Virus record (IMG/VR): IMGVR_UViG_3300029258_002326 | Span: 1-64,000 of that record | Source: a virus | Taxonomy: Duplodnaviria > Caudoviricetes | Reading direction: 5' to 3' (one strand) | Length of the DNA: 64,000 bases | Shown: positions 27,738 through 38,071 of the stretch, piece by piece | How the letters are laid out: every line of letters starts with the position of its first letter | Position numbering within the stretch: position 1 is the stretch's first letter | Notes under the pieces: model-generated | What the model was told of the DNA's origin: nothing | Seen by the model: the letters and a program-made list of their open reading frames with translations, nothing else | Database searches by the model: none | Program-made: the position numbers and the translations under genes

Positions 27738-28643
27738 ATGGGTAAAGCAGCTAAACGTCTAAAGGGTAAGCCAACTGGGCGGATTGCTAATCTTAGGTGT
27801 TACGAGACTGTCCATGACATGGTGTGCGCAGGCTATCCGCTGACCGCGATTGCCAACTTGATACAGGACAAAATGCAAGAGTATCTTGATGTGCCTAAGC
27901 AGGCTGTTGTGATGGCCCTTCACAGGTACAGGGAGAGTCTTAAGGATAGCGGGGATTTGGTCCAGGGTGCAATGCCGAGGGTATTTGTAGAGGCCAAGAA
28001 GAAGTTCTCCAACAAAATGCAGGAGCTTGAGCGCCTGGAGGATATGATCCTCGTGCTCCAGTATCGGATTGATTTGGCCCATGGCGTGGAGCGGATAGCG
28101 AACGCAGTTGACCCTGGGGTCGACAGGATGACGAGGGAATTCACGAATGTGGTTGCGCGAATGCACGACATCAAAATGGATCTTGGACTTGTCGGCTCGC
28201 GGGACATCGGTACGATCACAGTCTCTGCGGAGAGACTGGAGGAAGTACGACTTAAGTACGGGGACAATGCAGCTAAGGCATACGCCGATCCTGTATCTCG
28301 AAATAGAGTTCTGGCAGCCATTGGTGCGATACGGAAGGTGTCGGGAGATAAGTCAGTCGAGCGACTTGCTACTGAGATGGGGGTTTCCGATCCTGACGGT
28401 GCTGTGATTGACGCTGAGTTTACGGCCAAAGAAGAGTCTGTCGCGATTCCTGTCGCGAAAGACGCCGGAGATGTCGCGAAAGCCAAGGGCAAGCCAGTGA
28501 AGAAGACCGCGAAAAAGCCCGCGAAGAAGAAGGCCAAGATCAAGCCAGCTGACAAGCCAGTGGCGAAAGAGGCGCCGGTCGAAAAGCCTGCCCCAGTTTC
28601 AGTTCTCCCTCCTGGGCCAGAGAAGCCGAAGATAAAGAGGTGA
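27738..28643 (+). CDS. putative terminase small subunit
   Basis: Directly upstream of TerL; N-terminal HTH-like region, central coiled coil, K/P/A-rich tail; mostly a positional inference. Confidence 0.5.
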   Translation: MGKAAKRLKGKPTGRIANLRCYETVHDMVCAGYPLTAIANLIQDKMQEYLDVPKQAVVMALHRYRESLKDSGDLVQGAMPRVFVEAKKKFSNKMQELERLEDMILVLQYRIDLAHGVERIANAVDPGVDRMTREFTNVVARMHDIKMDLGLVGSRDIGTITVSAERLEEVRLKYGDNAAKAYADPVSRNRVLAAIGAIRKVSGDKSVERLATEMGVSDPDGAVIDAEFTAKEESVAIPVAKDAGDVAKAKGKPVKKTAKKPAKKKAKIKPADKPVAKEAPVEKPAPVSVLPPGPEKPKIKR

Positions 28644-28653
28644 GCTTAGCTCG

Positions 28654-28667
28654 CGAACTCAAGTTCG
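28654..28667 (+). repeat. 14-bp quasi-palindrome copy 6
   Basis: Exact match; between putative terS and terL. Confidence 0.95.
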
Positions 28668-28683
28668 CAGATGGGGATGACTG

Positions 28684-31600
28684 TTGATAGTTACGACACG
28701 CAAGGGGAGAAAGAAGTCTGTAATAACCAAGGAGGAGCTGGCGGCCCATGCCGGTGACATGGTTGACGCCCTGACAGACGCAGAGCTAGAGCTGGTGATG
28801 GGCCTGATAGACGAAGATCCGGAGATTCAGATAGAGCACCACAAGACGATGCGCGGGCACTTGTACCACCGAGAGCCTGTCTCTATGGAGCAATTCATAG
28901 AGGATCCACATTACCTGGGCGAGTCTTGCTCGACTCTCTACCCAGAGCTTAAGAAAGATCTCATAGATCTGTTTGATTATCCATTCAGAGAAGTTGTGCT
29001 CACAGGCGGAATTGGAGTTGGCAAATGCCAACGAGGGGTGAACGAGCTTTATGATCCGGTCATGGGGAGAAGGCTAACTGTAGAAGATGCTGCATCTTTT
29101 GGCAAGTACAAAGCGTGCGCCACGTTCAACAAGGATGAGCGGAAGACAGTGAGTGGAGGGTGCAAAGTATTCGAAAGCGGAAGAAAGAAGGCGGGGGATC
29201 TCGTGCTTGGGAGCGGGAAGAAGATTGGACTAACTCCTGATCACCCTGTCTTGACACCGTGGGGATACAAGCCAGTCGGAGAGCTTAAGAAGGGGGATCT
29301 TGTTGCGACTTCGCGAGAGATGCCCTTACCTGAGATGCCTTTGGCTATTTCTGACAATGAGGTCAAGTGGGTGGGCTACATCTTGGCAGACGGCGGTGTG
29401 ACAACGTCTCGGATTGTCTTCGTAAAGGGTGTTGATGAAATAATCTCAGAGTTTTGGTCTCTGTCGGAATCGCTTGGCGGGGATGTGAAGGAAGAGGATG
29501 TGGATGCTGATGCGCGGAGGGTTCGTGTCCTGGGGCTTGATCGCTTGAGGGATAAATTTGATCTCAAACACAAGTCCAAGGACAAGAGAGTTCCGAGTGA
29601 GTTCTACGGGCTAGACAATCGCCAGCTTGCCTTGTTGCTGAATCGCATTTGGTCGTGTGATGGATGGTTCTGTCGCAGGGATAAGAAAAAGGGCAACTGG
29701 GAGATTGGAATATCCTTAGCCAGTGAGCCGTTCGTGAGGGATATTCAACAGCTCTTGCTTCGTTTTGGGATTCACTCTCGGATGCGTCCGCGTGAGATGG
29801 GGTACACGCACAACGGAGAGAGGAAGCATAGCGATGCTTGGTCTTTGCAGGTGCTGGGTAGGGATGAAGTTATTAGGTTCTTGAATTCGATTGGAAACCT
29901 CGTAGGCAAGGAAGAAGATTGCGAGACTGCGCGGCGCGAACTTGAGTTCGTAAAGGGCAACTCGAACGTGGACATTACCCCCATGAACAGAGAGGTGATG
30001 ACCAGGGTTCGTAAAGAGATCGGGCCGGTGCCCAAGAAGGCGTACTGGCCGCGTCCGGCGCAGGGCTCGCAAATGGGCCACGGGGTGTTCTTGAGATTCG
30101 CTGAGGCGTATGATCTTCCCGAGTGGTGCTCCTGGTGGGGTGGAGTATTCTGGGATGAGGTGGAATCGTATGAGTGCGGCGATGAGTTAGAGCCTGTGTA
30201 TGACATCGAGGTTCCTAAGACGAGGAACTTCTCAGTGCACGGGGTTATCGTTCACAATACGTTCGTGCTCTCAATAGCCATATGCAGGGTGCTTTACGAG
30301 CTGTCTTGCTTAGTGAATCCCCAGAAGACTTTCGGCCTGTCGTCGGGTACGGAGATGGTTATTCCGTTGATCTCAAAGAACCTTCCGCTGGCGCGTGCTG
30401 TCATGAAGACGGCGGTTGACGACAAGATCAAAGAGTCTCCGTATTTCATGAACGAGTTCTCTCCGAAGATCTCCAAGGAAGCCACGCTGTTTCCTCATAA
30501 CATCCGAGTGATCATAGGGTCGTACGGTAGTGAGCGAGTTCTTGGCTCGAACGTTTTCTGTGTTGGGCTTGATGAGTGCCTAATACTAGAGGCAGGTTTG
30601 ACAACGGAAAGAAAAGGTGTTAGGCGATCCATGACAGTTGGAGATCTTCTGGAAATGAGTCCAGAGGACGCTGAAAACTGCAAGGTTGTAGGTTTTGATC
30701 ATGCGGAGAATAAGCTCAAGGCTGGATGGTGGAGAATCAAGAAGTCCACGGTTCAAGAGCTTGTTGAGATCAGGACTGCGCTGGGGTCGGTATCGCCGTC
30801 GAGAAAACATCCCGTTCTTGTCCAAAGAGGAGACTGGCTTGTTTACGTTCATGCGGAGGATGTCGTCCCTGGCGATTTTGTTGTCATGGAGGATCGTGAT
30901 GCCAGCGAAGGGGCAGACTGTAAGCGAAGAGCAGAAGAAAAAACAATCGGAGAAGATGAAGGGTCGAGAGTTATCGGAGGAGACGAAAGAGAAGATGAGA
31001 TCTGCGCAAAAGGCGCGGTACGAGAATGGGTACGTCAATCCGATGAAGGGGAAGACTCAGTCAGAGGAGACGAAGAAGAAAATCAGCGAGGCCCAAAAGG
31101 GGAGGAAGTTCTCCGAGGAACATCGGCGGAAGATCGGAGAGGCGAATCGCAGAAGGAAGATCTCGAAAGAGACGCGGGAGCGAATGAGCGAGGCTCAAAA
31201 GAGCAAGGCACCTGCAAGCGAGGAGCACAGACGGAAGATAAGCGAAGCCAATACAGGCAGGAAGCATACGGACGAAGCTCGTGCGAACATGAGCAAGGCT
31301 CAGAAGGGTCGCGCCCTGTCAGAGGATCACAAAAAGAAGCTGTCAGAGGCGGCCAAGAAGCGCACAGGAGAGGCGAATCACTTCTACGGAAAGACTCACT
31401 CCGAGGAGGCGCGGAAGAAGATGAGAGAGGGTCAGGCGGGTGTACAGCGGAAGCCTCACTCCGAAGAGACAAAGAGAAAGATGAGCGAGTCTCAAAAGGG
31501 GCGCAAGTTTTCCGAGGAGACGAAGGAGAAGATGAGAAATGCTGCGAAGCGTCGTGCAGCCGATCCAGAGTGGCGAAAGAAGATGAGCGAGTCGTCGAAG

Positions 31601-34600
31601 AGGGGCTGGGCAGAGGGCACCATTGGCCAGAACATGCCACCCCGGCACGGAGAGGCGAACCCTTTCTACGGGAAGAAGCACACGGAGGAAACGAAGGCGC
31701 GTCTGAGCGAGGTTGCAAAGGCGAGAGAACCTCGCGTGCATACGGAGGCGTCGAAGGATGCGATTTCCGAGGGGAACATGCGGGCTATCAAGGACGGGAC
31801 GAGGACGTACAAGTTCCGTGCGACGTCTCCGGATGGTGGGGTTGTGCCTTGCCGGACAGAGGCGGAGAAGAGACTAGCCGATCATCTTTGTTCTCAGGAC
31901 GGGGTTGTTTCTGTTGTCGGCGAAGACAAGATGCCGTTTGTGGAGTACGATTTCAACGGCCAATCCAGGATAACGGTTGCGGACTTCATGGTAACAGCAA
32001 GCGACGGTCGAATCATTATCGTAGAAGGGAAGGCGCAGGGGTCGCTATACGGAGAGAGAGAGAGGGCTCGGTTTCTTGCTACATGGGAGCACTGCAAGGC
32101 GTGCGGGTTCGACATGATTATATCATTCAACCATGCAAGGGACCCCGATCTGTCTCTCGGTCCATTTGTGACACAGGAATTTGTGGAGATGGTGAAACAG
32201 GGGTTTGTTCCCATGTCACTGCTTTCGGACAATCGTGCCACTGGGGTTGCGGCAAGGCGAACGGGCTTTGGGCATCACGGGAAAAGAGTAGCTGGAGGAG
32301 ACAGAAAGTATCTGTTCAGCACTGTGTCTCCGGACGGGGTGATCGTCAATTGCAGGACAAGGAACAGCCTGCGTGTAGCCGATCATCTTTGCTCTCAGAG
32401 CGGGGTTGTTTCTGTTGTAGGCGAAGACAAGATGAGTGCTATTTATCACAAGGTGAATGGAGAGGGGCGCCAGACGGTTGCAGACTTCATGGTTACTCGC
32501 AGCGACGGACATATTATTTTTGTGAATGTAGAGAGCAACACGTTTGCAGAGAGCAAGGGCCTCTGTCATCGTATGAATGCAATGTGGGACCATTGCAGGG
32601 CTGTCGGTTGCAGTTTCATGATGGTATTTGCCGATGCGTCCGTGGATCCAAATGTGTGGGAGGGTCCGTTTGTCACGGATGCGTTTGTCGAGCGCGTCAT
32701 GGGCACAGGGGTGATTCGACAAGGATTAATGGCCGATGCCAGAGTTCCTGCGTTGACGGTGGCGTCTCCGAGCGGGAGCACGATCCATTGCGCGACAGAG
32801 AAGGAGATGAGGCTGGCGGAGTGCCTATGTCAGCAAGAGGGCGTGGAGTCCATTTCCTCAACAAAGAGGGAGTGCGTGGCGAGGTTCGAGTTCGAGGGGC
32901 GGGCGCGAAGGGCTGTGGCGGACTTTATTGTTCTCATGCGGGACGGGAGAGAGGTGGTTGTCTATTCCATACATGGGACAAACGCGAGGAGCGTATCATC
33001 AAGGAGTGCGCTCATGGCTATGTGGGATCACTGCAAAGAGATGGGCATGAGCATGTTGCTAGCCCTCAAGGAAGCGAGGAATCCAGATCTGTCCCTTGGT
33101 CCGTTCGTGACGCAGGAGTTCGTGGATGGGTATATGCGCGGAGATGCCAAGAGGAGTGCGCTCATAGACAAAAGGCCAAAGGGAAGGAGACCATCTCCGT
33201 TGAAGGGCAGGAAACTTGGTCCTCGCAAGAAAATGACGAACTTGAGTTCGCAGGAATCCGCCCCGAAAGAACACATGTCGAAGAAATCCCTGTCGGTCTT
33301 TGCCTCGCGGAAGTAGTGTCCGTTTCTGCCCTGCCCGCTGAACAAACATATTCTCTATGCACGGAGCATCAGACGTTCATCGCTGATGGGTTCGTGGTGC
33401 ATAATACGAACTTCCCGCCGAACCGTAAGAGCCAGCAGATCACTACAGCTATGGGCCAGAAGAAGACAAAGGCTCACTTTGATATTGTGGAGAAGGTCTA
33501 CCGGAACTTGGTCCGGCGAATAAAGTCCAGGTTCCAGGTTGCAGGCGGGGATTTCCCTGGGATGATCATCTTGGCTTCTTCGGCTGCTACCCTGGACAGT
33601 TTCACTGAGCGGAAAATCCGGGAGAGCAGGCTTGATTCCTCTGTCTTCGTCCGAGATCACACTCAGTGGACGGCCAAGCCTGGGTCTAACTTCTGCGGGG
33701 AGAAGTTCTGGGTTCTGTGTTCGGCGTCCTCTATGCGCTCTAGGATAATCGGAGACGATGAAGTGAAGCACTTCACCGACGAGTGGCTGGAGGAGAACGA
33801 TTCTTTTTTGATCGACATTCCGGTTGAGTACAAGTCGGACTTCGAGACAGACATTGAGAATGCACTAAGGGACCTTGCTGGTATATCTACTCAGGCTATA
33901 TCGATTTATATCCAGAGGCCCGACGCGGTGGACGCGTGTGTGAGCGAAGAGATGGAGCATCCGTTTACTGCGTATGAGTGGACATCCGGGCAGGCCGGGG
34001 CGTTCAAGTGGAACATTCTGTGTAACATGTTCGAGCGTCGGCTGCCTGGCGGATACACGGAGACAGCGTGGTCCCCCAAGATTAATCCTTCGAAGATGAG
34101 ATGGTGTCACATTGATACATCTCTCTCGGGGGACTGTACGGGTTTCTGTGTTGGTCATATAGACAAGTGGGTTGAGGTAGTAAGGCGAGACGGGGACGGG
34201 GTTCGTTACACGGACCTGGCACCCTCTTACGTCATTGACGTGATGTTGCGAGTGAACCCACCGGCTGGAGAGCAAATCTACATGCCGGACTTGCGTCGTT
34301 TCATTTACGAACTACAGGCACATGGTTATCAGTTCCTTGGGTTTTCGTCGGACACATACCAGTCGGCGGAGATGCACCAGCAAGTAAAGAGAAGGGGGAT
34401 TTCTACCCATATCATATCGACGGATACGTCCACGGATCCTTACGATGAGCTGAAGATGGCGATGTACGAGAACCGGATTACGTACTATCATTATCAGCCA
34501 TTTATTGAGGAAATCAAAGACTTGGAATATGATCGCAACGTGGGCAAGATCGATCATCAGCAGGCCGGGTGTTTTGTCGGAGAGACGCGGATTCCTCTTC

Positions 34601-35223
34601 TGGATGGAAGCTGCCCTATGATCTCAGAGTTGGATGGGGTGGATACGTGGGTGTACTCCTGTACAGAGGGTGGTCGCATTGTTCCGGGCCGAGCAAGGGG
34701 TCGATTAACGAAAGAGGTGACCGAGCTTGTGGATGTGGTTCTGGACAGCGGGGCTGTCGAGAGGTGTACGCATGAGCACCTTTGGATGTTGAGGGACGGG
34801 ACGTACAAGAAGGCATGCGACTTGGATCCTGGCATTGACCGTTTGATGCCGATTGATTTGAATTCTTTTCCGGTTGAGCACAAGGTCAGGCATGTAACTC
34901 CTGTTCGCCTTGATAAGCCGGTGGCTGTGTATGACTTAGAGGTTGAGGAGTATTCCAACTTCTCGCTTTCTTCTGGAGTGTTCGTCCACAACTCCAAAGA
35001 CGTTAGTGACGCAGTAGCGGGTGTGGTGTATGGTTTGATGAAGACATCGACCAAAATCCCTGCGATTGTGGGCGATAGTAAAAGTGCCGCTGTTGAAAAC
35101 GAATACGACTGGGTCTCACCTATGATCCAGACGGACGGCATAAGCGCCGAAGAGCTAAGGGACATGAAGGACGCGGGAGATACAGACGTGTCGGAGTATG
35201 TCCCTATTGTGTTTGGAGACTGA
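28684..35223 (+). CDS. terL: terminase large subunit precursor with three inteins (about 684 aa after splicing)
   Basis: Walker [11 protein letters not shown]|T, Walker B CVGLDE|T, nuclease HIDTSLSGD and KIDH...G|[10 protein letters not shown], each split by an intein; upstream of portal. Confidence 0.93.
29026..30258 (+). mobile_element. intein 1 in TerL Walker A, with LAGLIDADG endonuclease (411 aa)
   Basis: Starts CQRG; block B TPDHPV; GYILADG and IWSCDG motifs; ends VYDIEV...IVHN followed by Thr. Confidence 0.93.
29937..29950 (-). repeat. 14-bp quasi-palindrome copy 7 (inside intein 1)
   Basis: CGAACTTGAGTTCG, coding RELEF. Confidence 0.9.
30899..33316 (+). CDS. nested putative homing endonuclease: NUMOD3 repeats + three TnsA-like PD-(D/E)xK domains (805 aa), +1 frame relative to TerL
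   Basis: GGAGG at 30888-30892, 6 nt before ATG; about 14 (H/F)SEE.K.K(M/I)SE repeats and NPFYGKKH; three copies of CRT..E..LA..L....V...ADF.V...G. Confidence 0.88.
33237..33250 (-). repeat. 14-bp quasi-palindrome copy 8 (inside the dual-coding region)
   Basis: CGAACTTGAGTTCG. Confidence 0.9.
34570..34992 (+). mobile_element. intein 3 (mini-intein, 141 aa) in TerL nuclease domain
   Basis: [13 protein letters not shown]; CTHEHLW; VYDLEV...FVHN followed by Ser; no endonuclease. Confidence 0.93.
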
Positions 35224-35224
35224 T

Positions 35225-38071
35225 ATGGGATTTACCGAACTAGTCAAAGGGCTCTTCAAGAGGGACAGGGATGTCCAGGCAGCAGCTATTGCCAAGGGTA
35301 CGGCGATTGCTACCAACGTCTCTGTTGACAGTATGGATCCGAGTAGCGGGACAGAGGGCGTCAATGCCCTTCAGAGCCAGCTAGCCATCGAGCAAGATCT
35401 GATTTCTCGTTACATAGATTACGAGAATATGGACGACTATGTTGAAACCAGCGCAGCTCTAACGGTGTTCGCGGATGACTCTACTATTCCAGATACCCTC
35501 CATAGGAAGACCGTGTGGGCTACGTCGGAGGATCGGCTCGTTCGCGATCTTCTGAACGACATGCTTCACAGGATGATCCGTATCGAGGAGGACGCCTGGG
35601 TCACAGTTAGGAGCTTGGCAAAGTACGGGAACTTGTACGGGGAGGTTCTGACCACAAAGGGCGGGGTAATAGGTATCAACTGGCTTCCCGCACCGTCGAT
35701 ACGTAGAATAATAAACAGCAAAGGCGTCCTTCTTGGGTTCATCCAAGATGTGTCTGGGCAGTTCAACTACGATGCGGGGGCGCTTGTAGAGGCTCTAGAG
35801 GCTGGCAAGAAGCCCATTCCTGAAAACGAGAACAACTCTGGGATTACCTTCTTCTACCCTTGGGAGATGGTCCATTGGCGGCTGCGCTCCAAGCGGCTTC
35901 GCTCTCCTTACGGGTACGGTGTTCTAGACAGTTCACGGTGGATCTGGAAGCGTCTCCAGTTGATGGAGGACACAGCCCTGGTTCAAAAGCTGACAAGGGC
36001 TCCGGGTCGGTATGCGTTCTACGTGGATACCGGAGACTTGCCGCCTAAAGAAGCGGTGGCTCTTGTCCGCAAGGTTAAGAGCGGATTCAAGAAGAAGCGT
36101 CTGATCGATCCGAGCACAGGCCAGCTGGATCTTCGCAATAACCCGCTGTGCCTAGCGGGTGACACGGAAGTTCCTCTCCTTGATGGGAGTAAAAAAACGA
36201 TAGTCGAGATGGCGGAAGCGTTCGACAGGGGCGAGGAGCAGTGGGTTTACGGCGTTGACAGGAAAAATAACAGCAAGATGGTTCCTGGCAAGGTTGTGTG
36301 GGCAGGTCAGACACGTAAAGACGCTGAGCTAGTGCGCGTTACATTAGATAATGGCGAGTCTTTCAGGGTTACTCCTGATCATAAGTGCATATTGAGAAGC
36401 GGAGATCTGAAGGATGCCCAGGACTTGGTTCCTGGCGAATCCTTGATGCCGTTGCGTAGGACAATCTCTTCTTTTGAGAAGGGAGACACGATGGACGGGT
36501 ATGAGAAGGTCTACGATCCGTCCAGCAAGAAATATGTGTATACGCACAGGATGGTTGTGCGGGAACTAGGGATGAAGGAAAAAGGCAAGCTCACTCATCA
36601 CAACGCAGGGAAGCTGAATAACAATCCTAGTTGCCTTGAGAGCATGACATGGAGAGAGCACTCGGAGCATCATTGTAAACTGGGGCAAATGGGCGGTGCT
36701 AAACTCAGAGAGCTTCGCAAGACGGATAAAGCTCTGGATCAAAAGTTACGAGATGCAGCGTCGAGGACGCTTAAAGAGCGTCACGCTGATCCTGAGTGGA
36801 AAAAGAGGAATGCTGAGGCAGTGCGTCGGAGTAACATCGAGCGTGATAGTGGTAGGTACATCCGTGCCTATAACGATTCTGACAAGCATGTAGAAGACAA
36901 CGCGCAGAGAAGCTCCGCCATGAAGGCGTTCTGGACCGATGATGCCAGGTCTGAGTATTCGGAAACTAGGACGATCAGCTACTCGGATGTCTTCATTTCG
37001 GCGCTAGAGGAATTCGTCAGGAGCAACCCTGGGTCGAGCGCAGACGATGTGGCAGACTTCGTGTCTAGCGATTCTGTTGCTCTAGGTCTTCTCAATGAGG
37101 GAAGTTGCCGCGTGATAAAGAAAGCCCATCGTCATTTGCTTTTAAAGGCGTATAGGGCGCATGGCTATTCTAACTTCAGCGAGTTCAAGGAATCTGCGTG
37201 TTCCTACAATCACAAAGTTGTGTCTGTTGAGCGTCTTTCCGAGAGAGAGGACACGTATACGCTGACTGTTGACTCGTGTCACAACTTTGGCCTTTCTTCT
37301 GGGGTTGTAGTTTGCAACTCGCCATCCGAAGATTTTTGGATTCCTACCCGTGGAGGGAAAGATTCCACAAGGATCGAAGTCATCTCTGGGCCAGATGTTC
37401 AGATGATGGACGACGTGGAATACTTCCAAGGCAAGCTGGTTACATCGACGACGGTTCCGAGGCGCTTCATGGGTCTTGGGGATCCTGGTGACTCTACGAA
37501 CATGATGGCGTCCCAGGATGACGTGAGATTTGCCCGTGCCTGTATGAGGCTCCAGCGTGAGTACGTGCAGGGGCTTGAGAAGGTTGCCCGTATACATCTC
37601 GCGGCGTTGAACATCGATCCCGATTCTGTGCCTTGGCAAATCAAGATGACGGTTCCGTCTGCGATCTTCGAGATGCAGCAGATTGAGGTTATGAATGCCC
37701 AAGCTGGGCTGGCGTCTTCGCTGTCTGATTACATGAGCAAGCCTTGGATTCTCCAACGCGTGTTCAACTTCACGAGAGACGATGCCCAGGCTATGATCCA
37801 GGCGAAACGCGATGAGGAGTCCGGGGATGTTGTCCGGGAAGCCGAAGCGCAAGCGAAGGTCATGAAGTTATTCCCCGAGCTTGAGGGCGCACTCGACGAC
37901 AAAGACGGGGGAGGGAAAGAAGAAAGCGTTTCCCCTAAGAAGGCACCTATAGCGGAGAACGAGGACAGGAGGCTTCTTCGCTCCTTGAGCAAGAAGGCTA
38001 ACGCGATTGAGCGTTCTGTCACTCGGATCAATAAAATGTCACGGATCAACGGGTCCGGAAAGAGGAGTTAG
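35225..38071 (+). CDS. portal protein (T4 gp20-like) precursor with one intein
   Basis: Y..M......AL...ADD; L.LMED......TRAP.R..FYVDTG.LP; EDFWIP.RGG; DDVEYF..KL. Confidence 0.92.
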   Translation: MGFTELVKGLFKRDRDVQAAAIAKGTAIATNVSVDSMDPSSGTEGVNALQSQLAIEQDLISRYIDYENMDDYVETSAALTVFADDSTIPDTLHRKTVWATSEDRLVRDLLNDMLHRMIRIEEDAWVTVRSLAKYGNLYGEVLTTKGGVIGINWLPAPSIRRIINSKGVLLGFIQDVSGQFNYDAGALVEALEAGKKPIPENENNSGITFFYPWEMVHWRLRSKRLRSPYGYGVLDSSRWIWKRLQLMEDTALVQKLTRAPGRYAFYVDTGDLPPKEAVALVRKVKSGFKKKRLIDPSTGQLDLRNNPLCLAGDTEVPLLDGSKKTIVEMAEAFDRGEEQWVYGVDRKNNSKMVPGKVVWAGQTRKDAELVRVTLDNGESFRVTPDHKCILRSGDLKDAQDLVPGESLMPLRRTISSFEKGDTMDGYEKVYDPSSKKYVYTHRMVVRELGMKEKGKLTHHNAGKLNNNPSCLESMTWREHSEHHCKLGQMGGAKLRELRKTDKALDQKLRDAASRTLKERHADPEWKKRNAEAVRRSNIERDSGRYIRAYNDSDKHVEDNAQRSSAMKAFWTDDARSEYSETRTISYSDVFISALEEFVRSNPGSSADDVADFVSSDSVALGLLNEGSCRVIKKAHRHLLLKAYRAHGYSNFSEFKESACSYNHKVVSVERLSEREDTYTLTVDSCHNFGLSSGVVVCNSPSEDFWIPTRGGKDSTRIEVISGPDVQMMDDVEYFQGKLVTSTTVPRRFMGLGDPGDSTNMMASQDDVRFARACMRLQREYVQGLEKVARIHLAALNIDPDSVPWQIKMTVPSAIFEMQQIEVMNAQAGLASSLSDYMSKPWILQRVFNFTRDDAQAMIQAKRDEESGDVVREAEAQAKVMKLFPELEGALDDKDGGGKEESVSPKKAPIAENEDRRLLRSLSKKANAIERSVTRINKMSRINGSGKRS
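36149..37318 (+). mobile_element. portal intein with HNH endonuclease (390 aa)
   Basis: CLAGDTEVPLLDG; VTPDHK; YTHRMV...HH...NN.P.CL..MT..EH..HH; ends VVVCN followed by Ser. Confidence 0.9.

Follow-up and report, generated by a model that had tools for sequence, protein, structure and literature searches.

Organization of the terminase locus

We analyzed the first 64 kb of the 157,265-bp IMG/VR record IMGVR_UViG_3300029258_002326, which has direct terminal repeats, and refer to this whole stretch as the window. All features described here lie on its plus strand. Our subject is an intein in the gene for the terminase large subunit (TerL), inside which a nuclease gene is nested in another reading frame. 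The TerL precursor is encoded by an open reading frame (ORF) of 2179 codons (28684..35223) with three inteins inside. Comparison with 15 related contigs, retrieved through the third extein piece, split the exteins into segments of 114, 106, 388 and 76 aa, which add up to a mature terminase large subunit of 684 aa. These pieces are joined in one frame and uninterrupted in most of the 15 contigs, and annotated terminase large subunits from named phages match the third at 30–33% identity.

Intein 2 (30577..33405; 943 codons in the TerL frame) is inserted at the Walker B motif, between GLDE and TNF. The extein upstream of it ends in VFCVGLDE (30553..30576), the Cys codon of CLILEAG begins at 30577, and the Asn of FVVHN finishes at 33405. 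Thirteen of the 15 TerL relatives have the second extein piece joined directly to the third, in one frame, at exactly 30576/33406. The other two have an intein at this site: L085 carries a homologous 180-aa mini-intein and L091 an intein with a nested nuclease. In the window, the N-terminal splicing domain (30577..30900) and the C-terminal splicing domain (33253..33405) are separated by a TerL-frame linker of ~784 codons (30901..33252) that is rich in E, G, R and C and has no stop codon.

The nested gene (30899..33316) is in the +1 frame relative to TerL and comprises 805 codons plus a TAG stop (33314–33316). A Shine–Dalgarno (SD) sequence, GGAGG (30888..30892), lies 6 nt before its ATG, within the TerL-frame codons M-E-D. 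A preliminary description of this DNA had placed the limits of the intein, the SD, the ATG and the TAG exactly. It also had the nuclease ORF begin after the N-terminal splicing domain and end as the C-terminal splicing domain starts. The second part needs correction, since the last ~20 codons overlap that domain.

Stop codons are absent from the host frame

The TerL frame contains 0 stops over 30577–33405. The nuclease frame is stop-free from 30692 to 33313, and the third frame contains 49 stops. We permuted the synonymous codons of 30899–33313 among positions, a procedure that preserves both the protein and its codon usage. The shuffled sequences had 43.0 ± 4.7 stops in the TerL frame, with a minimum of 23, and zero was reached in 0 of 5000 shuffles. 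The earlier rough estimate that tens of stops would be expected was therefore sound. The same avoidance can be read at the codon level: as had been noticed before, codons preceding one that starts with AA, AG or GA never end in T (0/269), whereas 154 of the 535 codons elsewhere in the nuclease do (28.8%). The third bases ahead of AA, AG and GA codons were G in 137 cases, A in 64, C in 68 and T in 0. The outcome was unchanged when the gene was divided into four, the NUMOD3 part and the three domain segments, and each segment was analyzed alone. Nine other genes of the window served as controls. In the equivalent frame they had 16–62 stops, and of 1463 such contexts in these genes, 324 were T-ended.

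The double open frame is real, and composition does not explain it. These codon statistics point to selection, rather than composition, as what holds the host frame open. TerL is an essential gene that a stop in its own frame would destroy, and selection removes such stops. In the +1 phase, a host-frame stop takes the form NNT/AA, NNT/AG or NNT/GA, and NNT and NNC are synonymous throughout the genetic code. Host stops can thus be avoided by wobble choice only, with the nuclease protein unaffected. In the other sense phase, the code implies that some dipeptides, for example Met followed by a residue with an A-starting codon, would force a host stop.

The layout recurs in other genomes

A word-index search of 5.8 billion proteins yielded a single protein related to the nuclease-domain region. 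This protein, P0002 (470 aa), has one nuclease domain and a C-terminal tail like that of the window nuclease. An exhaustive HMMER search with domain copy 1 against 1.84 billion representatives yielded 17 matches, 12 of them true family members. These consist of NUMOD3 and one domain, are 106–470 aa long and mostly begin with MP.KG or MA.KG; two family representatives (P0012 and P0014) have no catalytic residues. P0016–P0018 are weak matches (E 1e-4 to 9e-4) and possibly free-standing relatives, and P0013 and P0015 were judged by eye to be Ig-like repeat proteins and rejected as false positives. The DNA of 30577–33405 had no match among 50,697 phage records. A protein search of the same records gave matches to the NUMOD3 region only, covering at most 29% of the nuclease. 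Scanning viral contigs with P0002 as the query gave 80 loci, but these matched over the NUMOD3 part only and were set aside.

A scan of viral, metagenome and genome contigs with the domain alignment produced 16 rows. Once same-contig rows were removed, 10 further complete loci and one fragment (L111) carried the nuclease. The 10 loci represent about 8 lineages (about nine in all) with GC contents of 0.35–0.66, and the 11 complete loci, window included, contain two near-identical pairs, L097/L104 and L103/L109. In every one of the 11 the nuclease lies in the same TerL intein, in exactly the +1 phase, and the host frame has 0 stops; the L111 fragment is in the same phase. The arrangement first described in the window is thus shared by homologous inteins. 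For the AT-rich L097/L104 (GC 0.38), shuffling led us to expect 24.9–25.1 stops, and for L098, L099, L102, L103 and L109 it led us to expect 9.6–17.3, with zero reached in 0 of 3000 shuffles for each.

The nested nuclease ranges from 216 to 805 codons across the family, which is compatible with growth by duplication. We saw triplication of the nuclease domain in the window and in L112, an identical copy of it, and nowhere else. The relatives have one domain, apart from L103 (5154–7034) and L109 (129–2009), an intermediate form with two tandem domains, the first catalytic and the second degenerate. Their nested nuclease has 477 codons counted from the MAKKG start and 495 from the first ATG. In L103, yet another intein interrupts the third extein piece; the window has no insert at that site.

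Intein 2 has a predicted HINT fold and an unconserved linker

Cys1 and the block-B His78 (..SRKHPV..) are invariant in all 11 aligned inteins, as are H942 and N943, and Thr+1 of TNF is present in 23 of 23 extein rows. In the window, the N-terminal splicing domain reads ..SRKHPVLV.. at block B, with C1, H78 and P79 among its invariant positions. Its C-terminal counterpart has the pattern ..G.R.E...EQTYS..T..TF.ADG.VVHN followed by Thr+1 at 33406, with G893, R895 and E897 invariant in addition to H942 and N943. Invariant columns of the host-frame alignment of the 11 inteins are confined to residues 1–103 and 893–943, and there are none in the linker.

AlphaFold2 modeled the 943-residue intein with a predicted local distance difference test score (pLDDT) of 82–96 over residues 1–110 and 88–97 over residues 900–943, while 726 of the 943 residues fell below 50. 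The two ends align as one HINT domain to the mini-intein 7oec (Z 19.1, root-mean-square deviation 2.1 Å, 147 residues), and the structure comparison returned 81 chains at Z ≥ 8. The Pfam model Intein_splicing (PF14890) matched intein 2 over profile positions 10–155 of 155, with 23.1 bits and an E-value of 7.1e-5. The TerL-frame intein had no match in PHROGs or NCBIfam, where no intein model reached E ≤ 0.1. These alignments and models identify intein 2 as a class-1 HINT intein at Walker B that probably splices in cis. The normal splicing ends that the preliminary description assigned to it are borne out by the intein-less relatives, which join at those boundaries, as well as by the invariant residues and the HINT model. 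Its view of the TerL frame as a disposable linker also agrees with our results: the middle of the host frame is stop-free, unconserved in 11 inteins and, judging by the model, apparently unfolded.

The mini-intein of L085 (9461–10000; 180 aa) is 49–59% identical to the window's splicing halves and clusters with the window and L097/L104 (support 96). It keeps a GGAGG at the position of its relatives' nuclease SD, without an ATG. The +1 frame of its linker holds no recognizable nuclease remnant, only a TNSSSQE-like string that is a consequence of the conserved host frame. The L085 form could be either an ancestral state or a deletion product.

The nuclease joins NUMOD3 repeats to TnsA-like domains

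Residues 1–295 of the nuclease (30899..31783) form a NUMOD3 repeat array, which is its DNA-binding part. Pfam PF07460 matched this array in 5 stretches with 148.6 bits against a cut-off of 20.4 (E 4.1e-44), and in PHROGs it matched homing-endonuclease families. Three paralogous domains of ~150 residues follow: copy 1 (31784..32308), copy 2 (32309..32749) and copy 3 with the C-terminal tail (32750..33313).

An AlphaFold2 model of copy 1, built from a 26-row alignment, had a pLDDT of 90.1 and a predicted TM-score (pTM) of 0.82, and showed a restriction-endonuclease-like alpha/beta core. In a Foldseek search with this model, TnsA chains (1t0f, 1f1z) took ranks 1–4, with E-values of 5.6e-5 to 1.5e-4, a probability of 1.00 and TM-scores normalized to the query (TMq) of 0.51–0.53, with Hjc, RecU and Cas4-like nucleases ranking next. 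When PDB sequences were searched with a nuclease-domain profile, none matched at E < 0.01. The NCBIfam TnsA-like model NF033179 matched the nuclease below its cut-off (1.4e-11; 44.3 vs 110 bits), with the best TnsA_like_Actin stretch in copy 2. The NUMOD3 and TnsA-like N-terminal domains for which the preliminary description proposed searches are both borne out, the first by its score and the second through the fold, its sequence match being sub-threshold.

In the model of copy 1, D67 (31982–31984) heads the strand at 68–72, and E81 (32024–32026) and K83 (32030–32032) form an E-x-K within the strand at 77–83. Together with E28 and E47 these make up a catalytic set that is retained in all 10 first or only domain copies. 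It has been lost in copy 2 of the window (N-V-E in place of ExK), in copy 3 (Y-S-I) and in the second copy of L103, all three of which keep fold residues such as W101 and GPFVT. From sequence and model together, the nuclease comprises a NUMOD3 array followed by three TnsA-like PD-(D/E)xK domains, of which copy 1 alone retains the catalytic set. A predicted complex of copies 1 and 2 scored 0.00, an outcome that says nothing about whether they bind.

Copies 1 and 2 are 47–48% identical as proteins, yet share a 59-nt patch at 93% DNA identity (31875–31933 vs 32376–32434). Gene conversion between the tandem copies may have left this patch.

Substitutions fall on the wobble base of the nuclease

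Overlapping frames bias the ratio of nonsynonymous to synonymous rates (dN/dS), so we counted differences by codon position in place of a formal dN/dS. At nuclease codon positions 1/2/3 there were 19/19/55 differences between L101 and L106, 42/38/82 between L100 and L101, and 104/94/203 between the window and L097. Over the same DNA, 10 of 11 pairs were more alike in the nuclease frame than in the host frame (for example, 59.1% vs 27.8% identity); in the 8 diverged pairs, the nuclease frame was 47–73% identical and the host frame 20–51%. Since substitutions concentrate on the wobble base of the nuclease, the nuclease frame is the one under selection as a protein, and the host frame is merely kept open. 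The preliminary description had proposed selection on both frames, and two kinds of it are visible: purging of stops in the host frame and wobble-concentrated change in the nuclease frame.

These counts also bear on the least unlikely alternative, in which the +1 ORF is an untranslated relic, or the decaying remains of a former in-frame domain, and TerL alone matters. Such decay would suit the loss of ExK from copies 2 and 3, the lack of catalytic residues in P0012 and P0014, and the existence of a mini-intein without any nuclease. A relic would not be expected to gather wobble-biased substitutions, however, or to remain 47–87% identical where the host-frame linker is 20–77% alike. The ORF is also intact in 11 of 11 complete loci, with the catalytic set in 10 of 10 first copies and with SD and ATG conserved. 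We consider this alternative improbable.

A conserved SD and ATG suggest a separate start for the nuclease

The SD is GGAGG in 8 of the 11 loci and GAGG in 3, always 6–7 nt ahead of an ATG that opens MP.KG, MA.KG or MRKG in all 11. The host-frame residues over the SD vary (ME, VE, WR), which means that it is the nucleotides that are conserved and not the host amino acids. In the nuclease frame, a stop lies 3–207 nt 5′ of the ATG. The nuclease stops 89–152 nt before the extein, and its tail overlaps the beginning of the C-terminal splicing domain.

The conserved SD and ATG and the close upstream stops argue for internal initiation, the separate start that had been suggested before, and against a frameshift fusion. 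In the latter alternative, a programmed +1 frameshift would fuse the nuclease to the N-extein and the N-terminal part of the intein. Although the strand and the +1 phase are as such a frameshift requires, and the window's nuclease frame is open for 207 nt 5′ of the ATG, a stop closes that frame 3 nt 5′ of the ATG in L100 and L101 and 9 nt 5′ of it in L097 and L104. A fusion of this kind is very unlikely.

We give an equally low probability to the idea that the middle segment is removed or skipped, as a group I intron or by translational bypass, so that no ribosome reads through the host frame. In its favor, nucleases with NUMOD3 are a typical feature of group I introns in phages, and the NCBIfam model grpIintron_endo matched the nuclease with an E-value of 6.2e-11, under its cut-off. 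An untranslated host frame would not be selected against stops, yet stops have been purged from it in all 11 complete loci. No Rfam family matched 28000–36000 at E ≤ 1, and what borders the insert is intein blocks rather than extein sequence.

The record was assembled from a metagenome, and an in-frame endonuclease with two compensating indels could in principle mimic the layout. Contigs of two public runs (2018 and 2021), which may include the window's source sample, span 30400–33600 with 0 differences, 0 gaps and a depth of ~31–33, and a 149,931-bp contig from a third-party metagenome-assembled genome (MAG), L112, is identical to the window over 12,525 nt, again with possible sharing of source samples. 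Ten other complete loci from different metagenomes have the same +1 phase, nuclease-frame stops lie just 5′ of the ATG, and no TerL-length fusion was found among the 12 true family members from the 1.84 billion representatives searched. Given independent identical contigs and recurrence in other genomes, the layout is no assembly artefact, a possibility to which we assign next to no weight; the preliminary concern about misassembly can be set aside. L112 was binned in a MAG titled uncultured Dehalococcoidales bacterium, which could hint at the host, unless the contig is a phage genome placed in the wrong bin.

Chance openness of a purine-rich, T-poor stretch is just as negligible: the first ~900 nt (the NUMOD3 array) are T-poor, with an AT skew of up to 0.56, and 10–82 of 3000 shuffles of GC-rich relatives reach zero stops, but the codon-usage-preserving shuffles of the window expect 43 and never reach zero, its third frame has 49, its T-normal domain parts alone expect 5.8–9.8, the AT-rich relative (GC 0.38) expects 25 and has 0, and all 11 complete loci concur.

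Distribution and possible movement of the nuclease-bearing intein

The DE/TNF site (GAYGAR/ACNAAYTTY) is conserved in all 23 extein rows, and the junction is uninterrupted in 13 of them. A quick maximum-likelihood (ML) tree was built from the exteins of 9 nuclease bearers, 13 empty alleles and 1 allele with the mini-intein, and on it the nuclease-bearing state must have changed at least 5 times. All of the alleles closest to the window in this tree are empty or have the mini-intein. The tree omits L091 (same contig as L101), L103 (third extein piece interrupted by an intein), L109 and L111 (fragments), and L105, L107, L108 and L110 (same contigs as L099, L100, L101 and L102). The nuclease tree and the splicing-domain tree both place L101 and L106 as sisters (support 98 and 99). 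In the extein tree, L106 groups with L100 (99) and L101 with the intein-less L093 (96). This conflict between the trees fits horizontal movement of the intein.

A proposed model: a spliced TerL and a separate nuclease from one locus

We favor the reading in which intein 2 splices in cis and the nuclease is a separate +1 cistron between its splicing halves, and we put the probability of this reading as a whole at roughly 85%. All five alternatives considered above are unlikely. The favored reading builds on the anatomy of the locus, the selection on both frames, the conservation, the folds and the catalytic residues, and from these we infer the two translations, splicing, the target site and homing.

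Two products would be made from one mRNA. Ribosomes from the TerL start codon would read through ~790 codons of meaningless, unfolded linker, after which the N- and C-terminal intein halves would fold into one HINT domain and splice TerL at GLDE/TNF. Ribosomes starting at the internal GGAGG-N6-ATG would yield the 805-residue nuclease. The nuclease would cut the intein-less terL of co-infecting relatives near GAYGAR/ACNAAYTTY, and repair would copy the intein in. The presumed homing site of the intein-less allele is 30553–30576 joined with 33406–33429.

Several observations weigh against this reading or limit it. The short GC-rich loci L100, L101 and L106 expect only 2.9–4.6 stops, so that their stop-free host frames are of modest significance, with 10–82 of 3000 shuffles at zero. 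The near-identical L103/L109 pair has no wobble excess (2/6/2, 10 differences), and its host frame is more similar than its nuclease frame (99.4% vs 98.5% identity). The Pfam score of intein 2 is under the gathering cut-off (23.1 vs 35.8 bits). This miss is a threshold effect of a divergent intein with an 800-aa insertion, and it is outweighed by the splicing residues, the insertion and the fold. The linker model comes from a shallow 11-row alignment, and residues ~650–700 reach a pLDDT of 56–67. The TnsA-like domain is likewise under the Pfam cut-off (PF08722; 19.4 vs 26.5 bits). By our models there is one catalytic domain per chain, which does not account for a route to a double-strand break. 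As for homing, the sporadic pattern on the extein tree is also compatible with repeated loss, and the nuclease label is neither significantly scattered nor clustered on that tree (31 of 500 shuffles as low). All of the trees are quick searches with Shimodaira–Hasegawa-like approximate likelihood-ratio test (SH-aLRT) support only.

We also offer a broader and more tentative proposal, which as a package we think somewhat doubtful. In it, the +1 phase would be a rule, because it would be the sole sense-strand phase in which all host stops are removable by synonymous T-to-C wobble changes. A free-standing endonuclease gene could then settle in an essential intein without protein-level cost and later reach 2.4 kb through in-place duplication. 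Both frames stay open when NUMOD3 units and the domain are duplicated in place, so that such copying could enlarge a nested gene. Every TerL would be made through a ~790-residue stretch free of evolutionary constraint, and the triplicated nuclease, having one live and two dead TnsA-like domains, would act as a single-chain asymmetric enzyme.

If this proposal is true, the ~790-residue stretch must stay harmless and must not block splicing, which would make the intein a natural test bed for the tolerance of HINT domains to random sequence. Protein engineers may take an interest in an intein able to accept an unstructured insert of ~800 residues and in its long modular NUMOD3 array. The locus is also a statistically strong case of same-strand dual coding under two kinds of selection, at the protein level on one frame and to "stay open" on the other, for whose +1 phase the genetic code may offer a simple reason; the case recurs in about nine lineages. 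Gene callers are expected either to miss the nested gene or to mis-annotate the TerL precursor.

Other inteins of the packaging module

TerL intein 1 (29026–30258; 411 aa) lies within Walker A (GVGK/C...HN/T) and contains an in-frame LAGLIDADG_3 domain (Pfam). Six of the 15 TerL relatives have a homologue at this position, those of L090, L091, L092, L094 and L096 being 32–59% identical, and also occur in at least two nuclease-bearing loci. TerL intein 3 (34570–34992) is a 141-aa mini-intein (HQQAG/C...VHN/S), whose homologue in L085 and L091 has a larger in-frame insert with an HNH-like motif (HH..G....N....N). With these homologues taken into account, the three TerL inteins represent three different endonuclease states. 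A further intein (36149–37318; CLAGDTEV...VVVCN/S; 390 aa), with an in-frame HNH-like segment, interrupts a portal-like protein (ORF 35198..38071), so that the packaging module has four inteins within 9 kb. L091 has an intein at the corresponding place.

Comparison with known systems

The TnsA of Tn7 (1f1z, 1t0f) shares with the nuclease domain a restriction-endonuclease-like core with acidic residues and a Lys. It differs in that sequence identity is 14–16% and the domain here is fused to NUMOD3 repeats and triplicated. NUMOD3 joined to a TnsA-like PD-(D/E)xK domain adds a nuclease type to those tied to inteins. Within the literature searched, we saw no description of an intein that has a NUMOD3/TnsA-like nuclease nested inside it.

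The layout itself is in print. Gosselin, Arsenault & Gogarten (bioRxiv 10.1101/2025.01.02.630785) describe 63 actinophage inteins with non-canonical endonucleases, with terminase among the hosts, and propose that they arose when a free-standing endonuclease gene invaded an intein. The types given there are antisense LAGLIDADG, antisense VSR-like and 'frame 3' endonuclease VII-like. Like those inteins, ours is contiguous and presumably cis-splicing, with an endonuclease ORF between the splicing blocks, outside the intein frame, and an uninterrupted host frame. Unlike them, the family described here has only NUMOD3 and TnsA-like domains (by Pfam, PHROGs, NCBIfam and fold), is always +1 on the sense strand, and reaches 805 codons; it also comes from uncultured phages whose TerL is just 30–33% identical to those of named phages. 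In the main text of that preprint 'NUMOD' and 'TnsA' occur 0 times, and we encountered no stop-avoidance statistics there. A second preprint (bioRxiv 10.64898/2026.09.14.751524) concerns, by its title, a cyanobacterial dnaX intein with an out-of-frame homing endonuclease and a sporadic distribution. Its host is a cellular gene, unlike the phage TerL here.

The preliminary description had mentioned out-of-frame HNH genes in phage insertion elements. According to Arsenault et al. 2025 (PMC11855218), the ShiLan insertion in a phage methylase hides such an endonuclease. In that element too the insertion is stop-free in the host frame, the nuclease is in another frame, and homing was inferred. It has no splicing domain, an HNH nuclease and, by that account, no detectable ribosome-binding site, whereas the insert described here is a genuine intein with a conserved GGAGG/GAGG 6–7 nt ahead of the nuclease ATG. 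The novelty of the layout was over-rated, since out-of-frame intein endonucleases had already been published. What is new here is the nuclease type, its triplication and size, the conserved SD and the consistent +1 phase; we do not claim a new class.

A counterpart outside contiguous inteins is found in the fractured genes of Dassa et al. 2009 (PMC2677866), in which split inteins are parted by a free-standing GIY-YIG or Vsr-like endonuclease gene. As here, an endonuclease cistron stands between intein halves, a phage terminase is among the hosts, and some of the nucleases have NUMOD3. The 3′ end of the endonuclease gene overlaps the downstream intein part by 6–69 bp in 15 of their loci, which recalls the tail overlap described above. 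Their host gene is in two ORFs and is trans-spliced, and their new nuclease family has Vsr-type catalytic residues, whereas in our family all 11 complete loci have an unbroken host frame and the catalytic set is a canonical D...ExK. Our results support the idea that free-standing endonuclease genes colonize pre-existing inteins, and they link contiguous inteins to fractured split-intein genes. As one further part of the tentative proposal above, the family may be the contiguous precursor state of fractured terminase genes of the Dassa type.

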